From Thermoplasmata archaeon (GTDB taxonomy: Archaea > Thermoplasmatota > Thermoplasmata > RBG-16-68-12 > JAGMCJ01), in NCBI GenBank assembly GCA_046761005.1, contig JBHIFI010000002.1, forward strand, positions 1,914 through 65,913: DNA of 64,000 nt, read 5' to 3'. The notes beneath the pieces are model-generated. The model was not told where the DNA came from. It ran no database searches and worked only from the letters and a program-made list of their open reading frames with translations. A program made the translations under genes and the position numbers. Of this stretch, positions 12,103-60,300 are shown in pieces. Numbering within the stretch: position 1 is the stretch's first letter; the number at the start of each line of letters is the position of its first letter.

Positions 12103-12987
12103 TCATCCTAGCTGGGAGGAGAAGCCGGGCTTGATTCCGAATAGGTACCTCAGATAGCACAGTCTCTTCAGGTTGTGGCAGCAGGCCCTTGTGAAGGCCT
12201 CCGTGCGTCTTCTCCATCTCAATCTCCGACGAAGGGGGAGAGGGAAATCCCTCTTGAAGATGGAATACCCGCTTTCTGCAATGGATCGGGAGTGATACTC
12301 CCTCAACCATTCCTGAGTGTCACGAATGAAGGAATGAAGCATGTGAATCCACGCATCGCTCCCTTTCCTCTTGAGGGTTATTCCCCTCTTAGGGAAGAGC
12401 CTGGGAGCGGCTCCCAAATCCTCTATGGCAGTGCAGTTCTCTCTTGATAGGAATCCCGCATCCCCGCTGACGACCTCTAGGAAAGAATATCCCTTCGAGT
12501 CCTCCATCATGGAGGGAAGCATTGGAGACTCGTTCCCATCTGGGTTCTCCATCACATGAAAGGAGGAGAAGAGCTTGTATCTCCTTCCTATGGCCGTGAC
12601 TATCTTCTCATACCTTTTAGTCTTCTTTCCTCCCTTCTTGTCCGACTCGTAGTTCCTCTCCATGGACCTCGAGAGTCCTGTGCCGTCAACTGCAATCTCT
12701 TTCTCCACATCTCTGACTGCATCCTGAGTAAGGGAGAAGAGCATATCCAGGAGTTTCCTCACATCGTGATTCTCATACGCTCTTTCGACCGTCTTGTAGG
12801 AGAACACCCTCGATAGGTCAAGCTTCTCCTTGAAGAGAAGGAGGAGGCCCTCCGCCTTCCTGTTGGGCACACCGGAGCCCAAGCAGAGAAAACGAAGCTT
12901 TTCGTAGAGGCCACACGGTGCCAGCTTCCGGCATATACTAATATCCTCTTCTACGTCTGAAAGCCTCCTCAACGAGAACCTGATCAT
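12103..12987 (-). CDS. DDE transposase, IS4/IS5-superfamily-like (DDE_Tnp_1 type)
   Basis: Candidate DDE triad: AVDGTGLS (D1), SGDAGFLSREN (D2), and the C-terminal block YHSRSIAESGYSIFKRDFPLPLRRRLRWRRRTEAFTRACCHNLKRL, which matches the Y..R..IE..F..K ... R-rich ... YNL.R signature of IS5-like transposases. The annotated ATG 12987 overlaps the relE 3' end in another frame; the true start may be the internal TTG/GTG. Confidence 0.7.
   Translation of the reverse strand: MIRFSLRRLSDVEEDISICRKLAPCGLYEKLRFLCLGSGVPNRKAEGLLLLFKEKLDLSRVFSYKTVERAYENHDVRKLLDMLFSLTQDAVRDVEKEIAVDGTGLSRSMERNYESDKKGGKKTKRYEKIVTAIGRRYKLFSSFHVMENPDGNESPMLPSMMEDSKGYSFLEVVSGDAGFLSRENCTAIEDLGAAPRLFPKRGITLKRKGSDAWIHMLHSFIRDTQEWLREYHSRSIAESGYSIFKRDFPLPLRRRLRWRRRTEAFTRACCHNLKRLCYLRYLFGIKPGFSSQLG
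12103..12987 (-). mobile_element. Insertion sequence (transposase ORF span; terminal inverted repeats not identified, ends undetermined)
   Basis: Single DDE transposase ORF. I could not locate terminal IRs or a TSD by eye in 12035-12102 or 12988-13060. Confidence 0.45.
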
Positions 12988-31731: not shown

Positions 31732-33066
31732 TTGTCTGAAGAACAGAAGGATGTGATATTGAAGAAGGTGGAGAAAGAGGGCGTCAAATTCGTTCTGATG
31801 CAGTTTGTGGATATCTTGGGAGTCGTCAAGAACATCACACTCCCGAGTAATCAGCTGGAGAAGGCCTTGGATGATGGCGTCATATTTGATGGATCTTCCA
31901 TTGTTGGCTATGCGACAATCGAGGAATCTGATATGAGGGCCATTCCTGACATGTCCACATTTCGCATACTTCCATGGACCTCGGGCGATACGAAGTGCGC
32001 AGGTCTAGTGTGCAACATTCACGAGGCAGGAGGTGAGAGATTCAGTGGGGACCCAAGGTATATATTGGAGCTGATGATGAAAAAGGCTTTCGACAAAGGA
32101 TATGTCTTCAACACGGGTCCAGAGTATGAGTTTTTTCTCTTCAAGACAGATGAAGACGGTAACCCCACGACAACTCCGTGTGACGCTGGAGGATACTTTG
32201 ATCTGCTTCCTCTCGACGAGGGCGACATGGTCCGGAAGAAAACCACTCATTTACTTAATGCCCTAGGATTCGAGGTGGAAGCATCACACCATGAAGTCGC
32301 TCCGGGTCAGCATGAGATAGATTTGAGGTTCACCGATGCAACGACCTCAGCGGACAGGGTCCTGACCCTCAAGAACGCCATAAGGACAGTTTCTCTGGAA
32401 CACGGGCTTCACGCAACGTTCATGCCCAAGCCAATATTCGGAATCAATGGAAGTGGAATGCACACTCATCAGTCCCTTACAACGATGGATGGAAAGAATG
32501 CATTCTACGATCCCGACGGTGAATATCAGCTTAGCGATGTAGCGAGGTGGTTCATTGGTGGGGCTCTTGCACATGCGCGGGAGACATGTGCAATCCTAGC
32601 TTCCTGGGCAAATTCCTATAAGAGGCTCGTTCCAGGATATGAGGCTCCTGTTCACATCTCCTGGGCCAATAGGAATCGGAGCGCGCTCATACGCGTTCCA
32701 CCGGACAGAGAGATGAAGACAAGAATAGAGGTCAGAAATCCCGATCCTGCAGGCAATCCTTACTTGCAGTATGCAGTTATGCTCGCGGCGGGCTTTCATG
32801 GAGTTGAGAGGAAAATCGAACCTCCAGATCCTGTCGAGGTGGACATCTTCAAACTCCCTTCTAAGGAGAGGAAGAGACTAGGTATAGGGTCTCTGCCTGT
32901 AAGCCTGGAGGAAGCGCTAAACGAGCTTGAGGGCAGCGAACTGATGAGGGAGACCCTTGGCGCTCATATAATGACCCACTTTCTATACATAAAAAGGGAG
33001 GAGTGGGACAAGTACAGGACCCAAGTCACGAAGTGGGAAATAGAAAATTTCCTCAGAATTCTCTAG
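31732..33066 (+). CDS. glnA: Glutamine synthetase, type I
   Basis: GS beta-grasp and catalytic domains (GSSIVGYATIEESDM, NTGPEYEFFLF, the HxHxS region MHTHQSL, and the adenylylation-loop region). TTG start. Confidence 0.9.
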   Translation: MSEEQKDVILKKVEKEGVKFVLMQFVDILGVVKNITLPSNQLEKALDDGVIFDGSSIVGYATIEESDMRAIPDMSTFRILPWTSGDTKCAGLVCNIHEAGGERFSGDPRYILELMMKKAFDKGYVFNTGPEYEFFLFKTDEDGNPTTTPCDAGGYFDLLPLDEGDMVRKKTTHLLNALGFEVEASHHEVAPGQHEIDLRFTDATTSADRVLTLKNAIRTVSLEHGLHATFMPKPIFGINGSGMHTHQSLTTMDGKNAFYDPDGEYQLSDVARWFIGGALAHARETCAILASWANSYKRLVPGYEAPVHISWANRNRSALIRVPPDREMKTRIEVRNPDPAGNPYLQYAVMLAAGFHGVERKIEPPDPVEVDIFKLPSKERKRLGIGSLPVSLEEALNELEGSELMRETLGAHIMTHFLYIKREEWDKYRTQVTKWEIENFLRIL

Positions 33067-33938
33067 ATCTCCTTGGCGAGATCTTTCAGACGCTTTATTC
33101 TCTCCTTGGTAGGAGGATGCGTTGAAAAGATCGATGCGAGTCCGCCTCCCCTGAATGGATTAACGATGAAGAGCGATGAGGACGCAGGATTCCCCCTATC
33201 GATGGGCTTTCTTTTGTTTGCTCTTTCAAGCTTGTCCAGGGCACTTGCAAGTGCGAGCGGTTTCTTGATGGTCAAGCTTCCCACCCTATCAGCCTTGTAC
33301 TCCCTGCTTCTTGAAATTGCGAAGTGAATGAGCATCGCTGCGATAGGAGCAGTTATTGCTACGATGAGGAGGATTATCCAGTTGCCCTGTCCGCGCCCTC
33401 CTCTCCCGAAAAGAGCGTTGAACCAGAACATTCTAGCCATAAAGGCGATCGCACCCGCCATCGTGGCGGCAACAGTCATAACCAGAATATCCCTGTCCTT
33501 CACGTGAGCCATCTCGTGCGCCAGGACGCCCTCAAGCTCCGTCCTTGAGAGTGCATCCATTATCCCCTCCGTGACAGCAACTACCGCGTTTTTTGGGTTT
33601 CTCCCAGTAGCGAAGGCATTGGGTGTTTTTGTGGGAATGATTGCGACCTTGGGCTTGGGAACCCCAGCCTTTTCTGCAATCTTGGAAACCGTATCATGCA
33701 ACCACGGAAACTCCTGCTCTTTCAATATCCTGGCCTTGTATGACCACAGGATGATTTTGGAGCTGTAGAAGTAGCTTATCGCGTTGAATATCCCCGCTAG
33801 AATCAGAAAGAACATTGCACCGAGTATCCAGTTTCCGCCAGCGAAGAAGCCGCCAAGGACCCAGCCTATCACTGCGAACAAACCTGCAAGTAAGATAAAC
33901 AGGCCTATTACTGTCAGCTTTGGATGCATCTCTCCCAA
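33063..33938 (-). CDS. htpX: HtpX-like M48 zinc metalloprotease
   Basis: HEXXH motif (LAHEMAHVKDRD) plus the downstream E. Four TM helices. Starts 18 nt after the upstream NFACT gene stop. Confidence 0.85.
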   Translation of the reverse strand: MGEMHPKLTVIGLFILLAGLFAVIGWVLGGFFAGGNWILGAMFFLILAGIFNAISYFYSSKIILWSYKARILKEQEFPWLHDTVSKIAEKAGVPKPKVAIIPTKTPNAFATGRNPKNAVVAVTEGIMDALSRTELEGVLAHEMAHVKDRDILVMTVAATMAGAIAFMARMFWFNALFGRGGRGQGNWIILLIVAITAPIAAMLIHFAISRSREYKADRVGSLTIKKPLALASALDKLERANKRKPIDRGNPASSSLFIVNPFRGGGLASIFSTHPPTKERIKRLKDLAKEI

Positions 33939-38470: not shown

Positions 38471-38529
38471 ATGGAAAGGATTGGTTTTTGGAATATATTT
38501 GTTGTGTAAAAAAGAAAAAAGATGGGAGA

Positions 38530-40806
38530 CTACTTCTCCCTTCTTCTGAAAGATGCTATCACTAGAACTGCCAGTAGGGTGACCGCAACTACTGCGAATG
38601 TGCCGATATCGGGAATAGGTTCGGTCGTGACTACTTCTTTTGGCACAACACCGCCCCAGCCCCTCACGGCGATGTTTGCGAATCCGCTTCCTTCCTGGTA
38701 TCCCTCCTTTTCTGCTGTCACCGTAACCCTGAAGTTCGTGTCGGTCGTGACGTTTCCGGTGAAGGAAGCCGACCATTCTCCATCAGATACCTCTGTGAGC
38801 GTTCCAAGTGTTGTGCCCGCCAAATCCACAGACATGTGAACTGTGCAATTGGCAACGGGAAGTAGGTCCTTATCCGTTATGACTACCGTGACTGTCGTTG
38901 TCTCACCAGAGTTGATTATTGGTGCCGTTCCAGTGACATCGACATCAAGGGGATTGACAGCTGGATGCACTGTTAGCTTGATACTGTCTGAGGCTCCTTC
39001 GTATGTCTGCAGGAATACTGTTGCCTCAATCTCAACATCTGTTGAATCCGAGACGTCTGGAGCAACGTATTTGGTTTCGAAAACGCCCAGTGAATCCGTC
39101 GTCCCACTCGGAGATTCGAAGATCCCGATATCAGCAGAGAGTTCGACATTCACCCCTTCCACACTTGATTCACTTTCGTCAAGCACAAGCACAGTCACAG
39201 TGACGTTGCCACCAGATTCCACGGAAGACTCGGATGTAGACAGCGTTTTTAGCACGAGCGGGCCCACTTGTATCTTGTGGAGGTTTGTGAAAGACCAGAA
39301 GTTGTTTATTCCTCCAGCCATGTCTACCCAGCCCCCATAGACCGTTCTGTTGTAGGCCTCGATTGCATCGTACGAAAGGACGGGAGCAAACAGAACTTTC
39401 TCTGAGATGAGCCCGAGGGCTTGATGAACGTATGTCTGCCTGGTTGCCATGTCTATTGCATCATCCGCCGCATCGAGTGCCGCCGTTATCTCAGGATCGC
39501 TGTAATCAGCAAGCATAGGAATTTCCCTAATGGTAGCGGGCTCGAGGGGAAGCCTTTCCATTGCTAGGTAGATGTCAAAGCCAGAGGGATCCGTGGCCGT
39601 TGTGTTTAGGGAGACGCTAAGCCCGAGCCTATTGAGGAGTCCACTGTAAGCGATTGCTATGTTGGATTTCGTTATGTCCTCTGCAATTGAGGGTCCTAAC
39701 ATTGTCATCTGAAGTGCACTGCCATCTGGTTTTTCTCTCCATCCATCTCCGTCCCTGTCACTATAGTTCAGCCTTTCAAGTTCGAGAAGGCTGGGCACAT
39801 AGTTGGTGTCAGTTTCTCCAGCAGGATTGAGGAATGACCCTGCATTATACTTCACTATGGATCGATTGTACCAGGGCTCATTTTGGGAACTCATCGGTGA
39901 GTGGACTATGATTGTATTTGGCTCCAAAGAGAGGAACAGCTCCTTGTTTATGGCCATGGCCAGAGCCTTCCTAAGTTCTGGGGTTGCCAACTCGTCGATT
40001 GGATTGAAACCAATGAAGAGGTATTCAAGTCCGTAAGTGTAGGAAATCGCGAGCTTTCCTACTTCTGCTTCAGTCATTATACTCTTGTTCTCATATCTGG
40101 CATCGGTCGTATCAGTAGGAGCGAGGGTCCAGCCTATGAAATCAACGGTCCCATTGATTAGCGCATTTGCCGCCGCATCGATGTCTTGATAGACCTTGAA
40201 TTCTATGGTGTCAAGATAGGGTCTGCCATGGAAGTACTCGCTGTAGGCACCAATGGTGACGCTTTCCGCCGTGGTGCCGATGAACTCGAAAGGACCGCAC
40301 CCCTCAGTGGGAGCGGCATCGTCGGACTTAACAAGGGGCTTCTGCAGGCCCTCCGTCATGAACTTCCCTCCGCCACCACCAGAGAAGTCAAAGCGAACCT
40401 CTGTCGGGGAGAGAATGCTCACGTCATAGCCGCCATAGTAAGTTCCGAAGGTGTATTCCACATCCGTCGCAGTAACTGGAGTGTCGTCATGCCAGAGGAC
40501 ATCGGTTCTCAAGACAACGGTCACCGTCTGATTCTCCTGATCCACTGACCAGCTTTCGGCAACCCAAGGCTTTACCTGAAGAGTGACCGGGTCGAGACGT
40601 CCAAGAGAGTCGTACAGAAGGTCAATCATGTGCAAACTAGCTTCATCTGATGCTGTCTTGGGATTCAAATCCAGTGCAGTATCCTTCACAGCAACCCGGA
40701 AGTCTCCTCCGTACAGTCCGGAGATCTCTTCTGGAGTGGCGGCAAAGGCAGAGACAGCGAAACTCAGGACGAAGAGCATCGTCAGTCCGAATGCTAGTGT
40801 TCTCAT
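38530..40806 (-). CDS. Extracellular solute-binding protein, family 5 (oligopeptide/dipeptide OppA/DppA-like), with two C-terminal Ig-like domains and a C-terminal TM anchor
   Basis: Signal peptide MRTLAFGLTMLFVLSFAVSAFA. SBP_bac_5 core (DFRVAVKDTALDLNP..., WHDDTPVTATDVEYTF). About 180 extra C-terminal residues of beta-rich repeats end in a TM plus RRREK. ATG overlaps the subtilase stop (ATGA). Confidence 0.8.
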   Translation of the reverse strand: MRTLAFGLTMLFVLSFAVSAFAATPEEISGLYGGDFRVAVKDTALDLNPKTASDEASLHMIDLLYDSLGRLDPVTLQVKPWVAESWSVDQENQTVTVVLRTDVLWHDDTPVTATDVEYTFGTYYGGYDVSILSPTEVRFDFSGGGGGKFMTEGLQKPLVKSDDAAPTEGCGPFEFIGTTAESVTIGAYSEYFHGRPYLDTIEFKVYQDIDAAANALINGTVDFIGWTLAPTDTTDARYENKSIMTEAEVGKLAISYTYGLEYLFIGFNPIDELATPELRKALAMAINKELFLSLEPNTIIVHSPMSSQNEPWYNRSIVKYNAGSFLNPAGETDTNYVPSLLELERLNYSDRDGDGWREKPDGSALQMTMLGPSIAEDITKSNIAIAYSGLLNRLGLSVSLNTTATDPSGFDIYLAMERLPLEPATIREIPMLADYSDPEITAALDAADDAIDMATRQTYVHQALGLISEKVLFAPVLSYDAIEAYNRTVYGGWVDMAGGINNFWSFTNLHKIQVGPLVLKTLSTSESSVESGGNVTVTVLVLDESESSVEGVNVELSADIGIFESPSGTTDSLGVFETKYVAPDVSDSTDVEIEATVFLQTYEGASDSIKLTVHPAVNPLDVDVTGTAPIINSGETTTVTVVITDKDLLPVANCTVHMSVDLAGTTLGTLTEVSDGEWSASFTGNVTTDTNFRVTVTAEKEGYQEGSGFANIAVRGWGGVVPKEVVTTEPIPDIGTFAVVAVTLLAVLVIASFRRREK

Positions 40807-43800
40807 GGCTCACCCTCCTCTGGTGGCGGGATTTCCTCAGTTGGCTCTTCAGGAGGGACCTCTTCGGCAGGAGGCTCTTCCGGAATCTCAATCTCCTCCA
40901 GTGCTTCCTCCTCTTCCGGAACCTCCTCAACGACCTCTTCTTCAACGGGTGGGATCTCTTCCTCCGGAACTTCCTCCTCAGGCACTGCAGGCTTCTTTCC
41001 CAACGTGAGGCCAATGACAAAGCCAATTACGAGGAGAACGATAGCAAGAGCAGTGAGTATCAATGTTGTCCATGTTTGCTTCGTAACCTTCATCTCCGGA
41101 GACCATGTAATGGATATAGCTTCCGAAGCAACATTTCCCGCCTCGTCCTTTGCTATGACTGTGATTTCGTTGGCGCCGTAGCTGAGGGTAACCTCTTTGC
41201 TGAAGGCTCCGTTCGACGGAACTACTGGAAGACCATTTACCGTCACGATTTCCACGTCGCCTGACACTGTTCCTGTAATGTTAATTCTTGAAACCAAAGC
41301 TTCCCCGGTTATCGGGTCAACGTTGTCCTCAGGAATAGAGACCGTCAGGGTAGGAATGACGGTGTCTCTAATCATGACTGTGTCATTACTGTAGAATGTA
41401 TGGCCTGCGGCGTCAACCGCCTCTATTTCAATAGTGTTCGTGCCTTCCTCCAGCGCTACGGTCGTTTCAAAGCTTCCGTCCTCGTTCACTGGAACAATCC
41501 TCCCAGCGATGGTCAACTCCACAGTCTCGTTGAACTTCCCAGAGATTATGATGGATTCTGCGTTTGTTGGCCGGGCCTGCGACTCAGATGTAATCAGGTA
41601 TTCCAGTACGGGCGGATTCGTGTCAACTGTTATGAGTCTTGTCACAACAGCGGTGTTGCCAGCTTGATCTTGGGCTTCAACGATAAGTGGATTGAGCCCC
41701 TCTGTCAATTGGTCAAACAGATAGGAGAAGGAACCGTCTGGGCTTACGGGCACCTCCTCAGTGCGAATTAGGACAGTCGCTTCAGGCTCGGTGGTTCCAG
41801 TTATCATAGTATAGTTTGTCGGAACGGTGATGTCCGTTGATGGGTAATCAATTTCAAGCAATGGCGCGGTCGTATCTACGTAGAAATGCCATGTCATTTC
41901 TTCTATATTGCCTGCGTAATCTCCAACCTGCGTCTTCACCGTATGCATTCCATCGGCAAGAGGTGCATTTGGAGCATAGCTGACTGTTCCTATTGCATAA
42001 CCACCGAGATCTGAATCGAAGGTTACTGTGACCAACGACATAGCAGTTATGTCAACACCATCCAACCACAAGCCTATCGTTGTTGAATCCATCTCTCCTT
42101 GGCTGTCAGAAAAGCCTGCGAGTATTGGAGGCATGTTATCCGACGTTACTGAACCATCTGGAGGAGTCATTTGGATAACCTCTGGAGGAGTGGTGTCGTA
42201 GTTCAGTTCGACGGGAACGAGAAGCGTCAACGAGAATGGCGTGTTCCCTGGTGATGCAAAGAAGGCTGCTTTAATCACTCCCTCAGGGGTATCCACTGGA
42301 AGGTCCCATTCAAGATTGAGGATTTCGCTGGAGTACCTCTGAATGATATCCGCAGTGTATGTAACTTGGAAGGGCGATGGTCCCACCTTAAGTTCTGTGA
42401 TTATCATGTCCGCAAGTGAGCCGACCCTCCAGATGTCGAAGCCAGCCATCTTGATAATGTATCTACCTGGCGTTGGAAGGACCAGGACTACAGTCTCATC
42501 TGCGTCTGCGTCGGCATCGTACTTGACAAATTCGTCTGCTTGAGCCTCATCATCGCCGTTCTCGTCGAGGAATATTCCGAGGTCCATATCTGGGCAGCAG
42601 TCGACATGTCCCATCAGATGGAACTCTATCGTTATGACTGAAGCATCGACGTCCCAAAGCATGGTGTTCTTTGAACTAGCAAGGTATTCCTGGAAAGTTA
42701 TTTCGCCGGACGTATAGGGCTCCGGGTCATCAAATTCAACTGGAATGTCGAGGAACTCGTGGGTTTCTGAACCAGCAACAGTGACGCCTATCGGCTTGCC
42801 AAAGAACTCGTGGAAAGGATCTGGATTGGGTAACCACGGTAGAGTCGTCGAAAAAATCATCTCGGTTGAGCCCTGCAACTGACTCGTAGCAACATCAATC
42901 GGATAGGGTGTCATGCTAAGAAGACCTGTTTCTCCGGAGATGACATCAGCGGCTTCCTCCCCTTCGACTGTGACTGTTTGCACGATTAGGACGTTAAGAC
43001 CTGCACTAACACTGAGACCCTTGAAGAGACCATTTCCGACTCCCGCCCAGTCTGGAGTCTTCTTGAAGTATCCTGGAGCTCCAACATCCGTTTCGACGGC
43101 CACGAACGGCCCATATCTGCTCTCATTCAGCTTAGAGAAGACAAGGTCGCCAAAAGCAGAAGAACCTTCCTCAGTCGCCTGAGCGAGATGCCGCATATCG
43201 CCATAGGTGTTGTTCCCATCCATACCTATGTCAATTGTGAACTTCATCCCCTCTCTGAATACGAATGTATCAGGAACGTCGAAGAAGTAGTACCTCAAGT
43301 CATACGCGCCTCCGTAACCTCTAAGAGCATTGTTATCGTACAGTGTATCGGAAATAGCGGTTCCTCCGAACTGGAAGTTTGTGGAACCCTCGTGAGCCAC
43401 ATTTATTACCACTGGAATGGTTGTGACATTGTTCTCGTTTGTTAGGCGGATTGCACCCTCATAGAGTCCTATGTCCGTACCTGGCAGCACAGTTGCAGTT
43501 GCTACGAAATCAAATGAGCCGCCTGCGGTTATGTCGATGGTCGGTCCAAGAGGTGTGACACCATCATCCTCATAAAGAGTAACCATCGGCCAGTTCTGGT
43601 GCTCGAAGAACTCAATTGTCACAGTGACGGGTCCGGGTACAGGGGCACCGGCGAGATGCCTCCACCAGATGATTAGTCCATCATGAGTTCTTGCTGCGGG
43701 ATCGTAGACTCTGACCTCGAAGGAGTTCTCACCCAAGTAGACTCCCATCCTGTTTCTTTCAAACCAAGCTCCTGTCACTCCGAAGGGCAGATCTGGATCG

Positions 43801-46800
43801 ACTAGCATCGCTCCTGTGGAGGTCCACCACAGGTCTATCTCACCTCCATAGCTCACCGCCCAGAACCAGTCATAACCAGGTGCGAAACCTACGTCTGTAA
43901 TTCCATAATCATATGTAGGAGTGACAGACGTTATGACTGAATCGGCTAGAATGTCCCAGATTGCCACATCCGTTGCATTGGCAACCGCCAGATACATGTT
44001 GGCCACATCAAAGTCTACACACATTGGATATTCCTGTAACATCGTATATGTTGGCGGGAGATAATCGTACTCAACCGTAACGTTTGCCCCCAACGCGAGT
44101 GTGCCAATGTAGAGCAATATGCCATTAGCGGTATACATGATATAGTCACCCATGCCACTCGCGATGTCAAGCTCGTAGACTGGCGAACCGTCCACCCAAA
44201 CCTGGTATGAGAATGGAACGACGCTCGTGTTCCCTAGGAAGAACACTGGGAAACCTGTGTAGTTGAAGGTGTCATTCCCCGTTGAAGGCGCCAGGGTCAT
44301 ATCCCAGACATTCACCGTTCCAGTGCCAGCCATGCTCCAGTCAGATCCCAATCCTACCGAAGCGAGCCACATGCTGTCAGAGCTGAACCTAAGGTCCATG
44401 ACTCCGTCAGCGTCAGCAGACCAATCGCCATCCTCATGGCCACTAAATCCTCCAATGTATGCACTTGTGGTCGGATCCCAGAGCATTATGTAGTTATCCC
44501 AGATACCGAAGGCGCCGCCGGAACCCGTTGCGATGACGGACCCATCTGGGCTCCATGCAATGGTGTTGACGACTTCAAGATGGCCGCACATCGTTGAAAG
44601 CACATTCCCTGCGAGGTCCATGACAAAGACGTCTCCCAAGAATCCGGGGAGGCAAAAGTCTCGCGGGAGTCCATTTAACCATCTGATGGCTGAGTTGAGA
44701 CTCGAGACATACGCTATCTGACTCTCATTCGCCGGATTGAACTCCACTCCATTGATCGAGTAGCCGAAGAGGAGGTCATCCGAGACTACGATTCGTGAGC
44801 GGGTAGGTACATCCCAGACTGCAACTGCGCCAGAATCGATGGGCCACCCACCCGAAGAGGCCGCTAGCATGCTGCAGTTGGATGAGAAGTCTATGTCATT
44901 GATCATCGTGCCTTCCAACCCTCTTAGCCTGTCAATCGGATAACCGGTTGCATTGTCCCATAGAATGATGATGCCATCCTCCGCACCGGTTGCGAAAATC
45001 GTGCCATCGGAGCAGAAATCCATGGCGGTAACGTTCGCGGAATGCCCAAAGAACCGTTCATTCATGTTGACATCGGTCCAGTCATGCGGTTCTACGTATA
45101 TCATCTGGTTGGTCAGCAGGTCGATATCGAAATGGGCGGTAATTCTGAGAAGGTCCGCATTGTTCCATCTTGTAGCATCCATGTTGGGTCCAAACTTCCT
45201 TCCTAAGAAGTCGTAGAATCCTGTCTCGTTGATGATAGTCCAGTTGTTACCCACGGGCTCTGGCGGTGCTTGAATGGAGGGCTCGAATGCATATTCTATG
45301 GTGCCCATCCTCTTCAGGTAGTCAGCAGAAACTCCAACGTTGGTCAAGTCTGCCGGTCCGCGATTCTCCACCGTAATCATTTCGGAATCAGACTCACCAA
45401 CCGTAAGGAAGTGGACGAAGGCCACATAGTCCTCTCCCCTGTAGTCGCCTGGATACCAGACCTCAGGATCGGCGAGAATACCTCCTCTGTTGCCAGCTAG
45501 ATCAGTGGCGCGCAGGGCATTACCGTACCCATGACCCTGAGTGAAGACATCATAGTTCATATCATCAGCACTTGACAGCAGAATCTTCTGAGCTTCAAAA
45601 GCATCCATGTAATATCCGTGCTCCTGCTCATATGCATCCTGCATGAGTGCGATTACGGCTGTTGCGTGCGGTGCAGCCATACTTGTGCCTGCATCTATGT
45701 CCCATGCAGCAGTCCCATCACGGAATGGGTTCAACGGATAAGCATCATAGACCCAACCACCAGCAAAGCAGATATCAGGACCTAGTTGACCAGTTGCGGA
45801 GGGTCCCCAAGAGGAGAGATAGGCTATCCCGCCGTAGTGGGGATTCGGTCCTCCATCGTATTCAAACTCTGGTTGCACCCTGTAGAAGAGGTCCCACGCC
45901 GCGCAAGCGCTGATGGTTCCTGGTGTGACCGAGTTTCCGGAGGTCCCATAGCCGGTACCCTCATTTCCAGCGGCTTTCACATGGATTGTCTTGCCCTCTG
46001 CGTACTGGGTTGTGACCCAATCTCCATATCTCTCGCCAAGAGTCCATCCTGTTTCAATCGGATTGGAACCGAAACTCCAACTCAATACGAGGCCTTCATC
46101 GCCGGTCCCTGGCACTCCATCATAACCCTCTACACCGAAGAGGAATCCGTGATACTGGGTGAATGCGCCATGCGAAGTCCCCCCGGGTATCGAAATAACC
46201 TTCGCATCAGGTGCCAATCCCATCAGCTTCGGTATACCACCGATAGGAGTCACGCCCTGACCCACGATACTCGTGGCTACAGCTGTTCCATGCGAGCCGT
46301 ATATCGCACCGCTGAAGGCAACCATATCACCGGCGCCCCAGTAGTAGTTGTCCACTCCCAGGCGTCCTGCGACGATATCCGAATAGGGTATTGGTACAAC
46401 ACCGTAGGAATAATTCACAGTGATGACATCGAAGCTTTCAAGTGGATATGTGAATGTGAAGTTCCCCGTCACCCTGTTCAGAATCCATGGGTGGTACTCG
46501 TAGGTCGCTCTGGCAATACCGCCAGGCGGCAGTCCATTGGACAAAGTAATGAGACCTTCTGTGTAGTCAACTGTGTAATCATCTCCCGTCACCAATTTGC
46601 CCTCAGCATCGTTCCAATCATTTCCTTCAATAAGAACTCCATCGTAACTGTAGTTAGCCCAGAAGGTATCTCCTGGCATATTGACTATGAGGGGGTCCGG
46701 ACTACTCAGAAGTTCAGCTCCAAGCACGACCTCGCCCGTTCCTGCATCAGCGGCGTAATTGCCGGGATCGATTTCTGTAATCACAGGTCCAAACCAGTCC

Positions 46801-49061
46801 TGCTCTTCATCGCCATCAAAGTCAGTAAGACGGACTCTGTAGAGAACAATATCAGTGAATCCCGTATGCGTGAGATTGAAACGGTCATCGGTGGCGGGAT
46901 CGACGACCACGAATTGTTTGGTCATGTCGGTTGGGTCTCTTCCAGTCTCATTTAGCACAGCGCCTGTTACAGTGAGCACAATGGTATCTTCAACGACATT
47001 CTTGTTCGCAAGTTGCAGTTCCTTAGTCAGTTCTGTGGCGTCGAGAACCAACTCATCGACGATGGGTATCGTATTCCATGGTATGGAATTCTTACTCACA
47101 TCCACAACGTCGCTTACGGTCACATTTCCGTTGGCTAGTTGACCCCAAGTCTCACCGCCGATTGCAGTGGTGCCTGTAATGTTGGTTTCATTGCCTAGAA
47201 CGAGCTGTTCGCCTGTGATATTTGTGGCATTACTTATGAAGTAGAGAAGACCGCCAGAAACGTCCGCGAGACCATCAAGGTCCAGGTCCTTCCATAAGTT
47301 CGGGCTAGCCTTCGTGGCAGCCATCTCATTTGTGAAATTGAAGTCATTGTCCAGGTCTACATATACTGTGTCGTATACTCCATTCCATGTCGAGTCAACC
47401 ACAAGCACCGCAGGCGCCATGAAGTATGCAGCTTTCAAGCTAGAATCCCAGTGAAGACCTACATGGTACTTTCCACTTACGCTCGCAATTCCTGTCACAT
47501 CGTAGTCGGTATCCTGCATGACAATGCTGACGAAATCGATGTAGATATCGGCAAGTGTTGGGTTGGAGGTCGCGTATCCAAGAATCACCAGTATGTAGTC
47601 GTTCTCTGTTTCTGGATTGTATATCGGTGAGAACACCTCAGGATTGGCTCCAGTGCTTGTTTCTTGGTAAGAAACCAGTTCCGACTGGTCTATGTCATTG
47701 TCTCCGTTTGCATCGTAGTAAAGTGCCAGGTCCAAGTCATCACCGGGCGTGAATGCGACCAAAATATTCATCTGGACTGTTCCGACAGGAACCGCGAATG
47801 GTAGTCTATATCCAGCGGTCAAGAACACATCTGGAAATCCAGCACTCAGATCATCATCATATATCTCCACGCCAAGATAGGAGGTCGGTGTCAGGAGAGG
47901 AGCATCCCTGTAGTAAGTGATTATGTCCCCCACGGCCTGGAGTTCTGTTGAAGTATCGACAAACATACCTGATAGTTTGCCCTCCTCGGAGAGATAGGTA
48001 TCAATCGCCGGCGGTTCGAACGAAATGGGCCATCCGGCGTACGGTGAGCTGTACTTGTAGGTGGCAGTTACAACATCATTGAGTACCAAGGGCGTCACAA
48101 AGGTTATCACGCCAGTCGCTGAATCAAAGGTGTAGTTAGCAGGGGGCATCAGATTGCCGTTCAGATAGAAGGAATAGTCAGTAACATCCATATGCATGAG
48201 GGTGGCATTCGTCTCACCACCAACAGCTTTGATGACAGTTATGTTATCTATCGTGGTATTATCGGGCTGGACGGCCCAAGTCCCCTGGAGGTCAGAATGT
48301 CCGAAATCTATTCCCTGATCGAGGACTACGACGACCTCTCCAGCTCCCGTGTACCCATTGGCCCAGGCTTGATCCGCCATATGAGTTACCACGGAGATCC
48401 AATCATTTGTTGTCGGAGGATCTTCTCCCATTGGCTGAGGTCCCTCCGAACCACGCATCGAACCCATCGGTTGGGATGGAGAGTCAATGACAACAGGATC
48501 CAGTTTTATGCCCTTTTCCCTTGCCTTTCTTTCTATCCATCGATTCTGGTCCAGTGGTTGGCGGTTGAGTGGAACGTCTCCACCAACAACCTCTTCTTGC
48601 ACCTCCAACATGTCAGGGGTGTAGACTTCCTGCCGTCCTATCAACAGAACCTCATCAATCGCGCTCAGTACTGGGAGAACGTAAGCGGGAACCTCAAGAA
48701 TTATCGGTGTTGGTATCGTCTTTATTGTCGCTTTCTCACCAATCAATCCCCGATATTCATACTTCTCGAGAGCCCTAGCTACTGCGGAGACATCCGAGAC
48801 TATGAGGACCACGCCTACCATCTCTTTGCCTCCGCTCTTCGCCAAATCTAGCAGAGCAGGATCGATTTTCCCTAGTGCGAGCTCCTCCGGCTGAGGAAAT
48901 GAAGGTTCCTCCGCTAAGAGAAATTCTTCACCTTGCCCGACGGGCTTCTCGTCGAACGCCTCACCACCTGAAGATGTTGCGAGTGTGGTGCTGACGAAAA
49001 GCGATAGGGCAAGCAGCCCTACAACGATTCCACTAATCCACTTGACACTTTTTTTGGACAT
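40803..49061 (-). CDS. Giant (2752 aa) secreted/membrane-anchored S8 subtilisin-like serine protease with WD40 beta-propeller repeats, multiple Ig-like/beta-sandwich domains, a C-terminal TM helix and an acidic (PEE)n tail
   Basis: Signal peptide MSKKSVKWISGIVVGLLALSLFVSTTLATSS. Catalytic motifs in D-H-S order: VVVLDQGIDFGHSDL, HGTAVATSIVGQG, GTSMAAPHATAVIALM. WD40-like units (FGHSANVTAMDFCSDGTIFATGAEDGIIILWD; CGHLEVVNTIAWSPDGSVIATGS). C-terminus ...LILTALAIVLLVIGFVIGLTLGKK followed by PEEEVPEEEIPP.... Promoter TATA at 49118-49125 and a GGAGG Shine-Dalgarno. Confidence 0.85.
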   Translation of the reverse strand: MSKKSVKWISGIVVGLLALSLFVSTTLATSSGGEAFDEKPVGQGEEFLLAEEPSFPQPEELALGKIDPALLDLAKSGGKEMVGVVLIVSDVSAVARALEKYEYRGLIGEKATIKTIPTPIILEVPAYVLPVLSAIDEVLLIGRQEVYTPDMLEVQEEVVGGDVPLNRQPLDQNRWIERKAREKGIKLDPVVIDSPSQPMGSMRGSEGPQPMGEDPPTTNDWISVVTHMADQAWANGYTGAGEVVVVLDQGIDFGHSDLQGTWAVQPDNTTIDNITVIKAVGGETNATLMHMDVTDYSFYLNGNLMPPANYTFDSATGVITFVTPLVLNDVVTATYKYSSPYAGWPISFEPPAIDTYLSEEGKLSGMFVDTSTELQAVGDIITYYRDAPLLTPTSYLGVEIYDDDLSAGFPDVFLTAGYRLPFAVPVGTVQMNILVAFTPGDDLDLALYYDANGDNDIDQSELVSYQETSTGANPEVFSPIYNPETENDYILVILGYATSNPTLADIYIDFVSIVMQDTDYDVTGIASVSGKYHVGLHWDSSLKAAYFMAPAVLVVDSTWNGVYDTVYVDLDNDFNFTNEMAATKASPNLWKDLDLDGLADVSGGLLYFISNATNITGEQLVLGNETNITGTTAIGGETWGQLANGNVTVSDVVDVSKNSIPWNTIPIVDELVLDATELTKELQLANKNVVEDTIVLTVTGAVLNETGRDPTDMTKQFVVVDPATDDRFNLTHTGFTDIVLYRVRLTDFDGDEEQDWFGPVITEIDPGNYAADAGTGEVVLGAELLSSPDPLIVNMPGDTFWANYSYDGVLIEGNDWNDAEGKLVTGDDYTVDYTEGLITLSNGLPPGGIARATYEYHPWILNRVTGNFTFTYPLESFDVITVNYSYGVVPIPYSDIVAGRLGVDNYYWGAGDMVAFSGAIYGSHGTAVATSIVGQGVTPIGGIPKLMGLAPDAKVISIPGGTSHGAFTQYHGFLFGVEGYDGVPGTGDEGLVLSWSFGSNPIETGWTLGERYGDWVTTQYAEGKTIHVKAAGNEGTGYGTSGNSVTPGTISACAAWDLFYRVQPEFEYDGGPNPHYGGIAYLSSWGPSATGQLGPDICFAGGWVYDAYPLNPFRDGTAAWDIDAGTSMAAPHATAVIALMQDAYEQEHGYYMDAFEAQKILLSSADDMNYDVFTQGHGYGNALRATDLAGNRGGILADPEVWYPGDYRGEDYVAFVHFLTVGESDSEMITVENRGPADLTNVGVSADYLKRMGTIEYAFEPSIQAPPEPVGNNWTIINETGFYDFLGRKFGPNMDATRWNNADLLRITAHFDIDLLTNQMIYVEPHDWTDVNMNERFFGHSANVTAMDFCSDGTIFATGAEDGIIILWDNATGYPIDRLRGLEGTMINDIDFSSNCSMLAASSGGWPIDSGAVAVWDVPTRSRIVVSDDLLFGYSINGVEFNPANESQIAYVSSLNSAIRWLNGLPRDFCLPGFLGDVFVMDLAGNVLSTMCGHLEVVNTIAWSPDGSVIATGSGGAFGIWDNYIMLWDPTTSAYIGGFSGHEDGDWSADADGVMDLRFSSDSMWLASVGLGSDWSMAGTGTVNVWDMTLAPSTGNDTFNYTGFPVFFLGNTSVVPFSYQVWVDGSPVYELDIASGMGDYIMYTANGILLYIGTLALGANVTVEYDYLPPTYTMLQEYPMCVDFDVANMYLAVANATDVAIWDILADSVITSVTPTYDYGITDVGFAPGYDWFWAVSYGGEIDLWWTSTGAMLVDPDLPFGVTGAWFERNRMGVYLGENSFEVRVYDPAARTHDGLIIWWRHLAGAPVPGPVTVTIEFFEHQNWPMVTLYEDDGVTPLGPTIDITAGGSFDFVATATVLPGTDIGLYEGAIRLTNENNVTTIPVVINVAHEGSTNFQFGGTAISDTLYDNNALRGYGGAYDLRYYFFDVPDTFVFREGMKFTIDIGMDGNNTYGDMRHLAQATEEGSSAFGDLVFSKLNESRYGPFVAVETDVGAPGYFKKTPDWAGVGNGLFKGLSVSAGLNVLIVQTVTVEGEEAADVISGETGLLSMTPYPIDVATSQLQGSTEMIFSTTLPWLPNPDPFHEFFGKPIGVTVAGSETHEFLDIPVEFDDPEPYTSGEITFQEYLASSKNTMLWDVDASVITIEFHLMGHVDCCPDMDLGIFLDENGDDEAQADEFVKYDADADADETVVLVLPTPGRYIIKMAGFDIWRVGSLADMIITELKVGPSPFQVTYTADIIQRYSSEILNLEWDLPVDTPEGVIKAAFFASPGNTPFSLTLLVPVELNYDTTPPEVIQMTPPDGSVTSDNMPPILAGFSDSQGEMDSTTIGLWLDGVDITAMSLVTVTFDSDLGGYAIGTVSYAPNAPLADGMHTVKTQVGDYAGNIEEMTWHFYVDTTAPLLEIDYPSTDITVPTNYTMITGTTEPEATVLIRTEEVPVSPDGSFSYLFDQLTEGLNPLIVEAQDQAGNTAVVTRLITVDTNPPVLEYLITSESQARPTNAESIIISGKFNETVELTIAGRIVPVNEDGSFETTVALEEGTNTIEIEAVDAAGHTFYSNDTVMIRDTVIPTLTVSIPEDNVDPITGEALVSRINITGTVSGDVEIVTVNGLPVVPSNGAFSKEVTLSYGANEITVIAKDEAGNVASEAISITWSPEMKVTKQTWTTLILTALAIVLLVIGFVIGLTLGKKPAVPEEEVPEEEIPPVEEEVVEEVPEEEEALEEIEIPEEPPAEEVPPEEPTEEIPPPEEGEP

Positions 49062-49117
49062 TCCCGTTCCTCCTATCCAAATAGAAATTCAAAGCTGTCG
49101 CAGGCATAGGATTGCCA

Positions 49118-49125
49118 TTATAAAT
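49118..49125 (-). promoter_or_regulatory. TATA box (reads ATTTATAA on the minus strand) for the giant subtilase operon
   Basis: Lies 57 nt upstream of ATG 49061. GGAGG (forward CCTCC, about 49069-49073) is 8 nt before the ATG. Confidence 0.5.
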
Positions 49126-56722: not shown

Positions 56723-57346
56723 ATGGACTCCGTGAGGAGGGGCGGTTCCTGTATTTTCGTAATGCCTGTGATAAGGGGCCTCGTCAGTGAGGCGAGGGAG
56801 GTAGATCGGGCGGTTCAGGAGACGAAACCGGATGCGCTTGGTATTTGCGTATCAAAAGAGGAACTCAAGACGTTGGACGCCCTTGGAGGTCAAAGGACAG
56901 AGCCCTCAAGCTCTCACGAGGAGGCCTATATGAGGGGACTGGAAAGATTCGGAGAGGTGAGGAAGCCACCGCCATGCTACTCTGAGGGGTTATCAATGGC
57001 AAAACGTCTGAGAATACCGTGCATCGCCTTGGACATGGATGAGAGTCTATATAGTGAGGCATACTGCACTTTCGTTTCTGTCGTTGATGTGATGAGGCAA
57101 ACGAGGGATTCTCGTGTAGTTCTGGAGAAGGAATTCCAGGCTCAGTCGCCCGAGGAATTCGTTTTGGAACTCGATGCGTACGTCAATAGGCACAAGGGTT
57201 TTGAGAGGCTGGAGCGGGAAAGGGAGAGATATATAGCTCTGAGACTGTCCAAAATGCAAGGCAAATGGTCAAGAATTCTTGCCCTTGTTGAAGTAGAAAG
57301 GGCAAATGGTGTCATCGAGAACTTGGAACGACTACTCCCTCTCTAG
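56723..57346 (+). CDS. Hypothetical protein, possibly TraB/PrgY-like; co-operonic with the upstream regulator
   Basis: 207 aa; starts 5 nt after the previous stop. A weak N-terminal resemblance to TraB-family proteins (....EVDRAVQETKPDALGICVSKEELKTL) is the only basis for the product call. Confidence 0.4.
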   Translation: MDSVRRGGSCIFVMPVIRGLVSEAREVDRAVQETKPDALGICVSKEELKTLDALGGQRTEPSSSHEEAYMRGLERFGEVRKPPPCYSEGLSMAKRLRIPCIALDMDESLYSEAYCTFVSVVDVMRQTRDSRVVLEKEFQAQSPEEFVLELDAYVNRHKGFERLERERERYIALRLSKMQGKWSRILALVEVERANGVIENLERLLPL

Positions 57347-60300
57347 CTCTATTGTCACTCCTCTGTCTACGTCACCTATGTCCAGATCGTAGATTATCGT
57401 ATCGCGACTGTCTACAATGTCCGATTTCCAGCCTGGCTGCTCATTCTTGTACCAGACGGTCTTTCCTGTGGATGTCCCTATTACGACGTCATCCCAATAG
57501 TCGCCATCAACATCGCCGGCCCTCAGCGCGTTGACATCACCATCAGTGTCCGCCACCTTGGTGCTGTTCCATGCCGTGCCGGGAAGTTCGTTCTCAAACC
57601 AGTATACCTTGTCGTCATCCGTACCTGCGACAACATCGAGGTCATCATCACCATCTATATAGGCAAGATCTACGGCGAGGACGGAACCAGTTGCTTCGAG
57701 AGTATCCCCTGAGGGGAGTTCGCCCGTGCCATCATTGTATCTCATATGGACATTCCCGCTTGAAGTGGCTAATGCTACGTCCAGGTCATCATCATCATCA
57801 ACGTCACCGATGGCGATATCGTTCACAGTGCTAACAGCGTTCCAAGCATAGTGTTCGGCGACCACTACATATCTTCTGATGAACATGTGGTCGATATAGA
57901 CAGTATCATTGTTCATGTTGCCGTTGGTGCTGTCCGTGTCTATGACCCTAACGTATATGTTACCGCTAATAGTCGTGGGAAGGCTAGCACCCGTGTATGT
58001 GTTCGGGTCTGAGGTGTAAGCGACAGTCACCATATCCGACCACGGGCCGCTCGAACTCGTCGAATACTGGAACAGAAAGTCGTCTTGCTCGCTGTTATCT
58101 GTGTGGTAGGCCTCAACAAAGAACTTGTATGCATCTCCGCCAGCAGCGATAGATTCAATTCTCCAGATGTGGTCGAGAGTGCTTGTCGTTCCGTTTTCCG
58201 TGGAGGACTCCACAAACATATAATCGATCGAGAGTGTAGTCGCCATTCCATCGGTATTACCATCATTCTTGCTGCTGTCGCTATCTCTTATCCAAATGTA
58301 GAGCTGTCCTCCATTGAATCCGGCTGTCTTCAGGTCAAACACATCCGTTCCCTTTGTCGTCCTGCTGATTGCCCACACGAAGGATGGATTTGAATCCGTT
58401 GACCATCCCACCTCGAAGGGCTCAGTGCCTGTGCTTATGTAGCTTGTAACTGAGAGCTCAATACTGTCTCCGGACGAAACATTTCCGAAGTTGTACATGT
58501 GCCCACCGGCGCCCCCAGATTCGTTCCTCAAACACCACCATTTGTTTACACCTGCTTCAGCGCACAAGTCTTCAGTCAGCGTTTCGTATGTCCCATCATT
58601 CGAATGGGTATCTTGATAATCTCCGACCACGATGTCATATACAGCCGCCTGCTCTCCATCCGCCAGATACGTGCTAACGTCATATGCAGTTCCATTCACT
58701 TCCTCTATAGATTCGTAGGTATCATCAGTGTACCAGGTATCTGTGTACTCTCCGGAAACAGTTCCGTTTCCGGATATGTCCTGATCTGCAAGATAATCGG
58801 TTGTTGTGACTGTGCCAAACATACCATCCGTGTTCGTGTATATCCAGACCTCAGTTCCTGTGGCCACAACGAGGTCATCATCATCATCGCCATCCATGTC
58901 AGCAAGCCTTATCGCCTTTATTTCTGAGCCAGTATCATCTATAGGCATGGGTGTCCAGGCATTGTCATTTGCGTACCACCACAGGTCCCCGTCCTGTGTT
59001 CCAGCAACTATGTCCAGCAGGCTATCCTTATCGACATAACCTACGTCTACGGCTGTTACAGCCACGCCTAGGTCGTCCACTTCTCTTCGCTGCCAGTAAT
59101 GACCCTCTCCGCCCTGATTTCTATACACGAATATCTTTCCGACTTCGATTCCCTCAACCAGGTCGAGGTCAGTATCATCATCAATGTCTCCATAGACTAT
59201 GGATAAGAAACCTCCTGCTCCCCATGGGGGGTCTTGGTGACCTGGGAACGGAACATAGGATTCCACCTCATACTGCTCCCATCTGAATACGAGGTTCTCG
59301 AAAAATAGCGAGTAGATTTTCAAATCGAATACCGGGTGCGAATAGTCTTCGATGGCGGTGGCTATGTCCAAGTACCATCGTGGTCCCCGGATGGTGACGA
59401 GCCTGTTGAGGGATACTTTGTATTCCTCATTGATATCCTTGAGATAGAGAATCCTCAGGGTGTAGGCGTTCTCACCAAAAAGCCAGGGATCAAAGTTTGG
59501 CTTTGACAAATCTATGCTGAATTTGTAACTGACGGAGTTGTTTACGCTTGCCTCACTGATCGGGGGATTGCCTGGCTTTGCCCAAATCTGAATACCGCCA
59601 CCGAAATCCTGAATCTTGATATTTCCAAATTCGAACGTAGCATCAGTGTCTTGGACAATAACCTTCACATACATCGTGTCTGTGTAGTTGAAGATGTCCG
59701 AGGGATGCTCATGATCAGGATCGAGGAAGGTCAGAACCTGGGGATAGTTCGTAACGTTTCCTTCCTCATCTGTGACGGTAATGAAGTCTTGAACCTCAAA
59801 CAGGTTGTCAGGTGGAGGATAGTAGCTTGATCTCAGTTTTATCCTGAGAGAATAGTGACCATAGTCTAGCAACCCATCAGTATAGCCATGGCCCGCGCTA
59901 GACGTGTTCCATCTATATTCCCATATGTAGAACTTGCCCACGTAGTCGACGAGCTCAAAGGCCTCGGTTGAAGAGGGAATCGAAGTTCGGTTCATTGGCC
60001 CGCCGCCGTAGACTATGGGTTGTGGGGAGAGACCAGACTCAGCCTTGAAGAGCCAGAACTTATTGTCCAGATCGCAGTCGGGAAGAAAGTGGCTCGCGAT
60101 GACGATAACGATTCTCTCACCTTTCACGAATGTTCTTGTTGCGTTGCCCTCCCATCTTCTCTTGTCCCACTCCGTCTCATTGAATATCTGATAGTGTTGC
60201 AGGCCGCTTCCAGGAAGGAGCTCAGGACCGAATCTCGGAGTGGTTATGTTTTCTGGATATTCATAGTAATAGTGGTAGGCGGCGCCAAGTTCCTCAATCT

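Follow-up and report, generated by a model that had tools for sequence, protein, structure and literature searches.

A 64-kb stretch of contig JBHIFI010000002.1 from an uncultured Thermoplasmata archaeon of sediment (here called the window) carries two overlapping genes on its reverse strand, which encode a giant S8 family serine peptidase and a family-5 (Opp/App/Dpp-type) substrate-binding protein (SBP). The giant protein is most likely a catalytically intact subtilase, and the pair probably serves for proteolysis at the cell surface and for the capture of peptides that feed a distally encoded Opp importer of the ATP-binding cassette (ABC) type. The surface-tethered subtilase would cut external (detrital) protein; the co-produced, tethered SBP would capture the oligopeptides at the site of their production and pass them to an Opp-type importer encoded elsewhere in the genome. 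We infer the protease activity, the peptide specificity, the delivery to the transporter and the contact between the two proteins from sequence comparisons and structural models.

The giant protein would be a type-I membrane protein in which a pyrolysin-like, insert-bearing subtilase is held off the membrane by an Ig-like stalk. The subtilase would bear lineage-specific nested decorations, namely an expanded Asp–His insert and a WD40 propeller. The SBP would stand on a two-Ig stalk with its own C-terminal anchor, its gene being translationally coupled to that of the protease. An earlier note, made from the letters of the DNA, had already described both open reading frames (ORFs) and their overlap, the signal peptide, C-terminal transmembrane (TM) segment and poly-acidic tail of the giant protein, and the two Ig-like domains, TM segment and RRREK tail of the SBP. 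These features were all recovered, the two ORFs at exactly the same coordinates and with a 4-nt ATGA overlap, the signal peptide and TM segment by hydropathy, and the domains of the SBP by Pfam and an AlphaFold2 (AF2) model.

Subtilase core of the giant protein

The product of the first gene is 100% identical to an NCBI entry named "MAG: S8 family serine peptidase" from a Thermoplasmata archaeon (MAG, metagenome-assembled genome). The Pfam family Peptidase_S8 (PF00082) matches residues 922–1180 with 67.4 bits (cut-off 21.8), over profile positions 54–288 only. The Asp box lies outside this match, at residues 243–258 (VVVVLDQGIDFGHSDL), and was recovered by a profile–PDB alignment. The S8 motifs occur in the order Asp-His-Ser: VLDQGID (D248), HGTAVA (H924), AGNEG (the oxyanion N1033) and GTSMAAP (S1127). 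None of these four residues varies among seven full-length orthologues with identities as low as 35%, and P0136 and P0137, two further relatives, keep them as well.

When the profile of the seven orthologues is aligned to the archaeal subtilase Tk-SP, the Asp box corresponds to residues 122–160 and the His-to-Ser part to residues 166–416. The two stretches are contiguous in Tk-SP and about 580 profile positions apart in the giant-protein family; there is therefore a single interruption of the catalytic domain, right behind the Asp strand. Indeed, D248 and H924 are separated by 675 residues, whereas the 203 residues from H924 to S1127 are near the family norm. The earlier note had described a triad split by large inserts: the expanded Asp–His interval stands, and a second insert between His and Ser is ruled out.

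The AF2 model of residues 205–1300 (predicted local distance difference test, pLDDT, 74.9; predicted template-modelling score, pTM, 0.70) unites the two pieces as a complete subtilisin fold, with a Foldseek TM score of 0.68 to subtilisin BPN'. This agrees with the protease call of the earlier note. By profile and by fold, the nearest solved relatives of the core are Tk-SP, KP-43, Vpr, TPP II and site-1 protease, all of which are classed in the pyrolysin group (PMC9549277). The giant protein shows an insert in the catalytic domain and a long C-terminal extension, two traits of this group, and judging by these nearest solved relatives it may belong there. Residues 31–204, which follow the signal segment, are partly conserved in the consensus of the orthologues and of the wider family; they are a possible propeptide.

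The subtilase could also be an accessory of a protein whose main task is structural, adhesive or related to the envelope, and act in self-processing or envelope maturation. More than 60% of the giant protein is non-catalytic beta-sandwich or propeller, paralogues of the same architecture have lost the catalytic residues, so that the scaffold has a function without catalysis, and the genes around the locus, in conserved order, are housekeeping genes. We nevertheless regard this as very improbable: the triad and the oxyanion Asn are strictly retained in every orthologue that is paired with an SBP, and both the pairing with a peptide-type SBP and the linkage to Opp genes point to nutrition.

The substrate-binding protein

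The SBP matches Pfam SBP_bac_5 (PF00496) with 106.8 bits (cut-off 32.4), in addition to two Big_1 matches and Invasin_D3. A profile built from 21 homologues finds AppA as its best PDB match (1XOC, E 2.7e-36), followed by Lmo0135, a peptide SBP and DppA. AppA of B. subtilis is a nonapeptide binder. The AF2 model (pLDDT 70.9) shows the core, two beta-sandwiches (residues 515–615 and 620–715) and a TM helix (residues 735–757), and Foldseek aligns 510 columns of it to the 504-residue AppA. The SBP fold is therefore complete. The best NCBIfam match is Opp4A, with 82.5 against a cut-off of 650; no equivalog reaches its cut-off. Taken together, these matches suggest an oligopeptide binder.

The C-terminal end of the SBP, IPDVG followed by the TM helix and RRRE(H/K), is conserved among the orthologues, and the protein has no lipobox. 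An archaeosortase sorting signal was considered for the C-termini, including the IPD(V/I)G motif, and rejected: an NCBIfam scan of the C-terminal 42–60 residues (E <= 10) gave only chance matches to sorting-signal models (archaeosortase/exosortase, PGF-CTERM type).

Coupling and conservation of the pair

At the junction of the two genes (...GAGGAGGGTGAGCCATGAGAACA), the TGA of the protease gene and the ATG of the SBP gene share four nucleotides, and a GGAGG precedes them. The pair occurs with this 4-nt overlap in eight distinct lineages (window, L001, L002, L004, L006, L007/8, L009/10 and L074/75), while the identity to the window proteins falls to 31–39% for the protease and 34% for the SBP. 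In all of these lineages except L001, the gene order is (GAPDH)-SpoU-TruA-[S8]-[SBP]-Fap7-CDP-alcohol transferase-PriL, as seen in the window, L002, L004, L006, L007/L008, L009/L010 and L074/L075; in L001 the pair lies in a different neighbourhood. Within the window clade the SBP is better conserved than the protease (54–67% versus 33–78% identity).

The continuity of the 8.3-kb ORF, which the earlier note had singled out because proteins of this size are often misassembled, is borne out. Colinear, stop-free, full-length orthologues occur in independent assemblies (L001, L002, L004 and L009/L010) and the GC content is even along the ORF, which rules out a misassembly or chimera.

A scan of the ORFs of the window shows archaeal genes (TFB, family-B DNA polymerase, PriL, thermosome, tRNA-intron endonuclease and L15e). 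Since the host is archaeal, promoter signals were sought in alignments of intergenic regions instead of with a sigma-70 promoter scanner. Among eight orthologous loci, the TATA core is the sole invariant block in the spacer between TruA and the S8 gene, and the AGGAGGA that contains the Shine-Dalgarno (SD) motif of the giant ORF is kept in seven. The single promoter proposed earlier for the pair, a TATA box with GGAGG, is thus found again, the TATA box within 1 nt of the position then given. On the other side, the T6-C-T6 tract and the AAATATAT box that follows it are both kept in six of seven orthologous loci, and the tract may act as a terminator. With a conserved TATA core and SD motif at its 5' side and a conserved T-tract and separate promoter-like box at its 3' side, the pair looks like a discrete bicistronic unit.

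The gene directly downstream of the SBP gene encodes an AAA_18 (Fap7-like) kinase, in agreement with the earlier note. The apparent GTG start of this gene (38470, reverse strand) lies about 25 nt past the conserved AAATATAT box, and no SD-like motif is evident in the spacer. Its transcript may thus lack a leader or begin with only a very short one.

Probable link to an Opp transporter

In L001, the genes are in the order SBP, two permeases, two ATPases (oligo_HPY), two small ORFs, giant S8 and SBP, so that a complete Opp operon adjoins the pair. The SBP of this operon has 943 residues (SBP_bac_5, Big_1 and Invasin_D3) and the permeases 547 and 754. The SBP of the window is colinear with the operon SBP, Ig domains included (24% identity over 604 residues, E 7e-20); this makes it a diverged paralogue of a transporter SBP. 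When species-representative genomes were scanned with the L001 permease, 61 loci were obtained. Five of them, from close relatives (L012, L013, L014, L017 and L023), have the same Opp operon, after which an S8 gene of the giant-protein family begins. Lastly, the MAG JAJSAE01 carries a syntenic giant S8 gene that lacks the SBP on one contig (L073) and an Opp operon on another (L044), so genomes of the group do carry such importers at a distance. The earlier note had left the choice between an SBP that feeds a distant transporter and one that acts as a receptor or scaffold; L001, the five relatives and JAJSAE01 favor the distant transporter, and argue for such feeding over a true orphan SBP.

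The OppC-type permease of 754 residues (L001:3896–6160) contains a PQQ_2/BamB-like beta-propeller between the first TM segment (OppC_N) and the BPD_transp_1 core. Homologous genes for this second permease, of about 2.0–2.3 kb, occur in L012–L045, and long matches to it are found in many Thermoplasmata loci. An extracytoplasmic propeller inside an ABC permease is unusual. The two small ORFs after the ATPases (h1 and h2, which match no Pfam family) are conserved in several clades.

Several observations weigh against surface proteolysis and peptide capture for a distal importer. As the earlier note had stated for the genes after the pair, no ABC permease or ATPase was found, by tblastn and by Pfam analysis of all large ORFs, anywhere in the 64-kb window. 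The 6.5 kb past the 3' end of the window, read from a near-identical Logan contig with identical genes, hold no Opp gene either; the possibility raised earlier, that a permease operon lies just beyond the window, is thus excluded over this distance on the 3' side. A search for an Opp operon in three MAGs of the window clade (JAJISE, JAJISF and DAOVOM) gave no match, which is uninformative, as a single distant permease was the query and the MAGs are possibly not species representatives. The importer is assumed to be elsewhere in the window's own genome. In L001, the Opp operon has its own SBP, yet a second SBP remains coupled to the protease, and it could equally be the protease, and not the transporter, that this second SBP serves. 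Nor is the pair universal, since the L073 protein (3133 residues, with WD40, in SpoU-TruA synteny) has no SBP gene downstream. In the SBP itself, the nickel binders NikZ and NikA, the mannoside binders TM1223/TM1226 and a chitin-oligosaccharide binder score just below the peptide binders, by profile and by Foldseek, so the fold alone does not decide the class of ligand. Finally, the Pfam scan of the giant protein gave no propeptide (I9) match.

The closeness of the nickel and sugar binders bears on the idea that the ligand of the SBP is something other than a peptide (for instance an oligosaccharide or metal complex), the pairing with the protease reflecting, for example, the scavenging of glycoproteins or glycans. 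Archaeal SBPs of the di/oligopeptide class with a C-terminal anchor include sugar binders, as in Sulfolobus, and numerous archaeal and Thermotoga "Opp/Dpp" proteins bind non-peptide ligands. Such a ligand is improbable all the same. The top sequence and fold matches are the peptide binders AppA, Lmo0135 and DppA, with Opp4A as the best NCBIfam match, the coupling to a protease and the oligo_HPY-type ATPases of L001 are most simply explained by peptides, and there is no glycoside hydrolase gene in the neighborhood, in the window or in L001.

The main rival is that the SBP-like protein is a dedicated partner of the protease (a subunit that binds substrate or product, a sensor, a receptor, or a factor for maturation or scaffolding) within one surface complex, in a role loosely like that of PrtM for PrtP, because the SBP stays with the protease even where the neighboring transporter has an SBP of its own. 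It travels with the protease rather than with permeases, the overlap being kept over deep divergence, and the SBP that heads the L001 Opp operon is a different protein (24% identical). In addition, the SBP is more conserved than the protease in the window clade, with identities of 54–65% against 33–44%, and the C-terminal anchors and tails of both proteins are conserved. A dedicated partner remains unlikely in our view, for the fold is that of a complete, ordinary cluster-C SBP which most resembles transport SBPs, and having several SBPs for one Opp transporter is common (AmiA/AliA/AliB in Streptococcus and OppA1-5 in Borrelia). The physical linkage to Opp operons in relatives also fits transport, and L073 keeps the protease but not the SBP, so the protease is not strictly dependent on it. 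An obligate surface machine of protease and SBP, for which an ABC-type binding protein has been recruited and in which the WD40 propeller and the acidic tail are docking or signaling elements, appears still more doubtful.

Delivery of peptides to a distal Opp importer therefore stays the preferred reading. The suggestion of the earlier note that the locus serves the scavenging of protein gains support from the pair and its overlap being kept in eight lineages and from the linkage to Opp genes in relatives. It fits with isotope-probing experiments in which protein was catabolized by sediment Thermoplasmata that carry S8A peptidases as well as peptide ABC transporters (PMC9123169; see also PMC12220078).

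Features of the locus

The features of the two genes are collected in Table 1.

Table 1. Position of the genes, domains and putative expression signals in the window.
Feature	Position	Strand	Basis or remark
Giant S8 peptidase gene	40803..49061	-	Uninterrupted ORF, 2752 aa
Family-5 (Opp/App/Dpp-type) SBP gene	38530..40806	-	758 aa; ATG overlaps the upstream TGA
TATA-box-like element TTTATAAT	49117..49124	-	63 nt 5' of the giant-ORF ATG; preceded by an A-rich stretch resembling a B recognition element
GGAGG SD-like motif	49069..49073	-	Before the giant ORF
Signal peptide / N-terminal hydrophobic segment (aa 1-30)	48972..49061	-	Hydropathy peak at aa 5-30
N-terminal region (aa 31-204), possible propeptide	48450..48971	-	No Pfam family
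S8 domain, N-terminal piece with Asp248 (codon 48318-48320)	48282..48449	-	Profile match to the Tk-SP Asp box
Asp–His insertion of about 650 aa (aa 261-910; about 660 aa by Tk-SP alignment)	46332..48281	-	Profile and model
S8 domain, C-terminal piece	45492..46331	-	His924 (46290-46292), oxyanion Asn1033 (45963-45965), Ser1127 (45681-45683)
WD40 beta-propeller (aa ~1310-1735)	43857..45134	-	Matches to Pfam WD40 and Beta-prop; lies within the post-catalytic beta domain
Conserved middle region (aa 1741-2290)	42192..43841	-	Common to the wider family; jelly-roll-like DMDLGIFLDENGD motif at aa ~2158
Ig-like repeat stalk (aa 2291-2660)	41082..42191	-	Pfam Big_13, Big_6 and Glucodextran_B x3 (aa 2350-2650)
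C-terminal TM helix of the giant protein (about aa 2664-2686)	41004..41072	-	Hydropathy (aa ~2662-2693); sole C-terminal TM
Acidic Pro/Glu-rich tail (66 aa; 29 D/E, 16 P)	40806..41003	-	Predicted cytoplasmic; conserved among orthologues
Bilobal cluster-C SBP core (aa ~30-512)	39271..40719	-	Profile–PDB alignment and Foldseek
Two Ig-like beta-sandwich domains of the SBP (aa 515-715)	38662..39264	-	Big_1 x2, Invasin_D3; AF2 secondary structure
SBP C-terminal TM helix and RRREK tail	38533..38619	-	Conserved IPD(V/I)G motif precedes the TM helix
T6-C-T6 tract	38508..38520	-	10 nt 3' of the SBP stop; resembles an archaeal oligo-T terminator
Promoter-like AAATATAT box	38493..38500	-	Between the T-tract and the Fap7-like GTG at 38470

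The Asp–His insert and the wider subtilase family

When residues 205–1300 are used as a query, about 100 large S8 proteins of 1200–1900 residues are found in bacteria and archaea (P0038–P0135, from Chloroflexota, Gaiellaceae, Thermoplasmata and others). They share with the giant protein the S8 core, the core module of the insert (YHxGxHPD...VLVVD...YDTVYVDLDxDxDF...SGGxxYFI), and the post-catalytic and jelly-roll-like domains. Their Asp–His insert is of about 200–300 residues, with a spacing of 196–302 residues where the motifs could be located, whereas the window clade has added nested domains to the insert, the WD40 propeller, the Ig stalk, the TM anchor with its tail, and the coupled SBP.

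In the giant protein, the core module spans residues ~516–616 (YHxGLHxD...VLVVD...YDTVYVDLDND...SGGLLYFIS), and the flanking GWPI and GDMVAF segments are also common to the wider family. Upstream, at residues ~446–500, the insert has a jelly-roll-like DxDLxLxYDxNGD motif, which is found again in C-terminal domains of the wider-family proteins; these domains in turn weakly match the C-terminal domains of KP-43 and Tk-SP. Small "DYTxDxxTGxITF" beta units are repeated within the insert. With the insert as the only query, HMMER found 209 matches among 1.84 billion cluster representatives at E <= 1e-3; 137 of them reach E <= 1e-10 and 8 reach E <= 1e-30. The majority span the core module only, and the full-length insert occurs in about six of the 1.84 billion representatives. 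As the core module is widely shared and the full-length insert so rare, it appears from these alignments that the window clade roughly tripled a pre-existing Asp–His insert through nested additions. Homology to the insert of TPP II was also considered and could not be demonstrated by profile, PDB alignment or fold comparison.

The family includes giant paralogues of up to 3400 residues (loci L005:10001–20203 and L003:1163–11131) with the same insert and C-terminal architecture, in which the catalytic residues are lost. In P0005, P0006 and P0060, the His is replaced by A, W or D and the Ser by A or G; in P0007, P0139 and P0148, the Ser is replaced by E or D and the Asn by D or S. These six proteins are probable pseudo-subtilases.

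Propeller, stalk, anchor and tail

The WD40-like blades and beta-sandwich repeats noticed earlier in the giant protein are confirmed by Pfam: WD40 (PF00400) matches with 66.4–75.5 bits (cut-off 27), along with numerous Beta-prop families at residues ~1310–1540 and the stalk families of Table 1. Seven GH...WD-like blades were counted by eye from the sequence, with a further small insertion after blade 5. A scan for PA (PF02225) and CARDB domains, which the earlier note had suggested looking for in the giant protein, found neither with Pfam.

Orthologues in the same synteny that have the propeller are of 2591–2773 residues, and those that lack it of 2203–2206 (L006 and L007/8) or 2243 residues (L074). 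In the alignment, residues 1334–1367, 1370–1483 and 1520–1617 face gaps in the short proteins of L006 and L007. By this comparison, the propeller is an optional, lineage-specific nested insertion and not a core part of the protein. The consensus of the wider family was compared with the window sequence to place it: the propeller seems to stand where the post-catalytic domain of the wider family has the loop "YDWTDxNGDGxLWxDxNGNGVV", and would thus be a domain within a domain. A role in substrate binding or gating is speculation.

Beyond the propeller, residues 1741–2290, which include the DMDLGIFLDENGD motif, weakly match the C-terminal domains of KP-43 and Tk-SP. The ectodomain is strongly acidic (372 D/E versus 102 K/R) and contains 33 N-x-S/T sequons. 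The acidic tail (…EEALEEIEMPEEPP…PEEGEP) has invariant E/P columns and is kept between orthologues whose ectodomains are only ~33% identical, a similarity which is possibly inflated by the low-complexity composition. This conservation suggests that the tail may mediate an intracellular interaction.

Comparison with known systems

The lactococcal cell-envelope proteinase PrtP (lactocepin), an S8 endopeptidase classed in the pyrolysin group (PMC9549277), makes oligopeptides, which are captured by the membrane-tethered OppA for the Opp ABC importer. The window locus and its relatives show the same components, a very large surface-anchored S8 protease, a membrane-tethered family-5 SBP and an Opp importer, and may have the same division of labor by analogy. 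The giant protein differs from lactocepin in that it has no PA-domain insert, A/B domains or LPXTG anchor; it has a C-terminal TM anchor instead, and the NCBIfam model of the LPXTG-anchored peptidase gives 41 bits (cut-off 1400). The insert separates the Asp from the His, the SBP gene is not part of an opp operon and is instead translationally coupled to that of the protease, and the host is an archaeon. No PpiC/PrtM-like gene was found among the neighbors of the pair in the window.

Tk-SP (3AFG/9UES), KP-43 (1WMD), Vpr (8JMW), archaeal pyrolysin and the STABLE protease resemble the giant protein in having an S8A core and long C-terminal extensions. STABLE, from Staphylothermus marinus, is likewise an archaeal subtilase bound to the cell surface, and its presumed task is to provide peptides for metabolism (PMC9549277). 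Compared to the structures of Tk-SP, KP-43 and Vpr, the giant protein has an additional Asp–His insertion of ~660 residues, and compared to the pyrolysin-group relatives it adds the nested WD40 propeller, the TM anchor with its acidic tail, and the coupled SBP gene. It also differs from the cytosolic TPP II (3LXU) by its N-terminal signal segment and C-terminal TM anchor, a topology that is not cytosolic.

Archaeal family-5 SBPs, such as those of Sulfolobus and Thermococcales, are made of a signal peptide, a core, a linker and a C-terminal TM anchor. The SBP of the window has this layout, which is a known archaeal trait, and the operon SBP of L001 similarly combines an SBP core and Ig domains. 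What distinguishes the window SBP from these anchored proteins is that its gene lies away from any permease gene and is translationally coupled to that of a protease.

The components and the strategy are therefore already known, and the locus is an elaborate variant of them. Nothing specific to an S8–WD40 or S8–SBP pairing was found in the literature searched. The conserved translational coupling of a subtilase and an OppA-like protein, the size and nested build of the Asp–His insert, and a canonical WD40 propeller in an extracellular archaeal protease appear, as far as this literature goes, to be undescribed.

Other genes of the window

A gene for an M48-family membrane metallopeptidase (33063–33938, reverse strand) lies a few kilobases downstream of the pair, near NFACT and glutamine synthetase, in a synteny also conserved in L006 and L007. 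Another very large surface protein, of 1270 residues, is encoded at 57332–61144 (reverse strand); it begins with a domain of the archaeal type IV pilin kind (Pilin_N) and also contains FG-GAP repeats. At 12103–12987 (reverse strand), an ORF for a DDE-family transposase (PF01609) adjoins a gene for a DUF1186/SEC-C protein and a tRNA-Leu.

Significance

Isotope probing has identified sediment Thermoplasmata as some of the few archaea that live on detrital protein (PMC9123169), and their protein-degrading hardware has so far been listed as "S8A peptidase" and "peptide ABC transporter" genes. The locus described here offers a defined unit that is conserved and open to testing, and its genomic links lead to one particular, unusually elaborate Opp importer. 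It also illustrates how subtilases grow through nested domain insertions, while sister paralogues have turned into pseudo-enzymes. Docking of the SBP on the protease, if it occurs, would amount to a novel use for an ABC binding protein; an SBP that does no more than feed Opp would make the locus a well-documented archaeal analogue of the lactococcal PrtP/Opp system.

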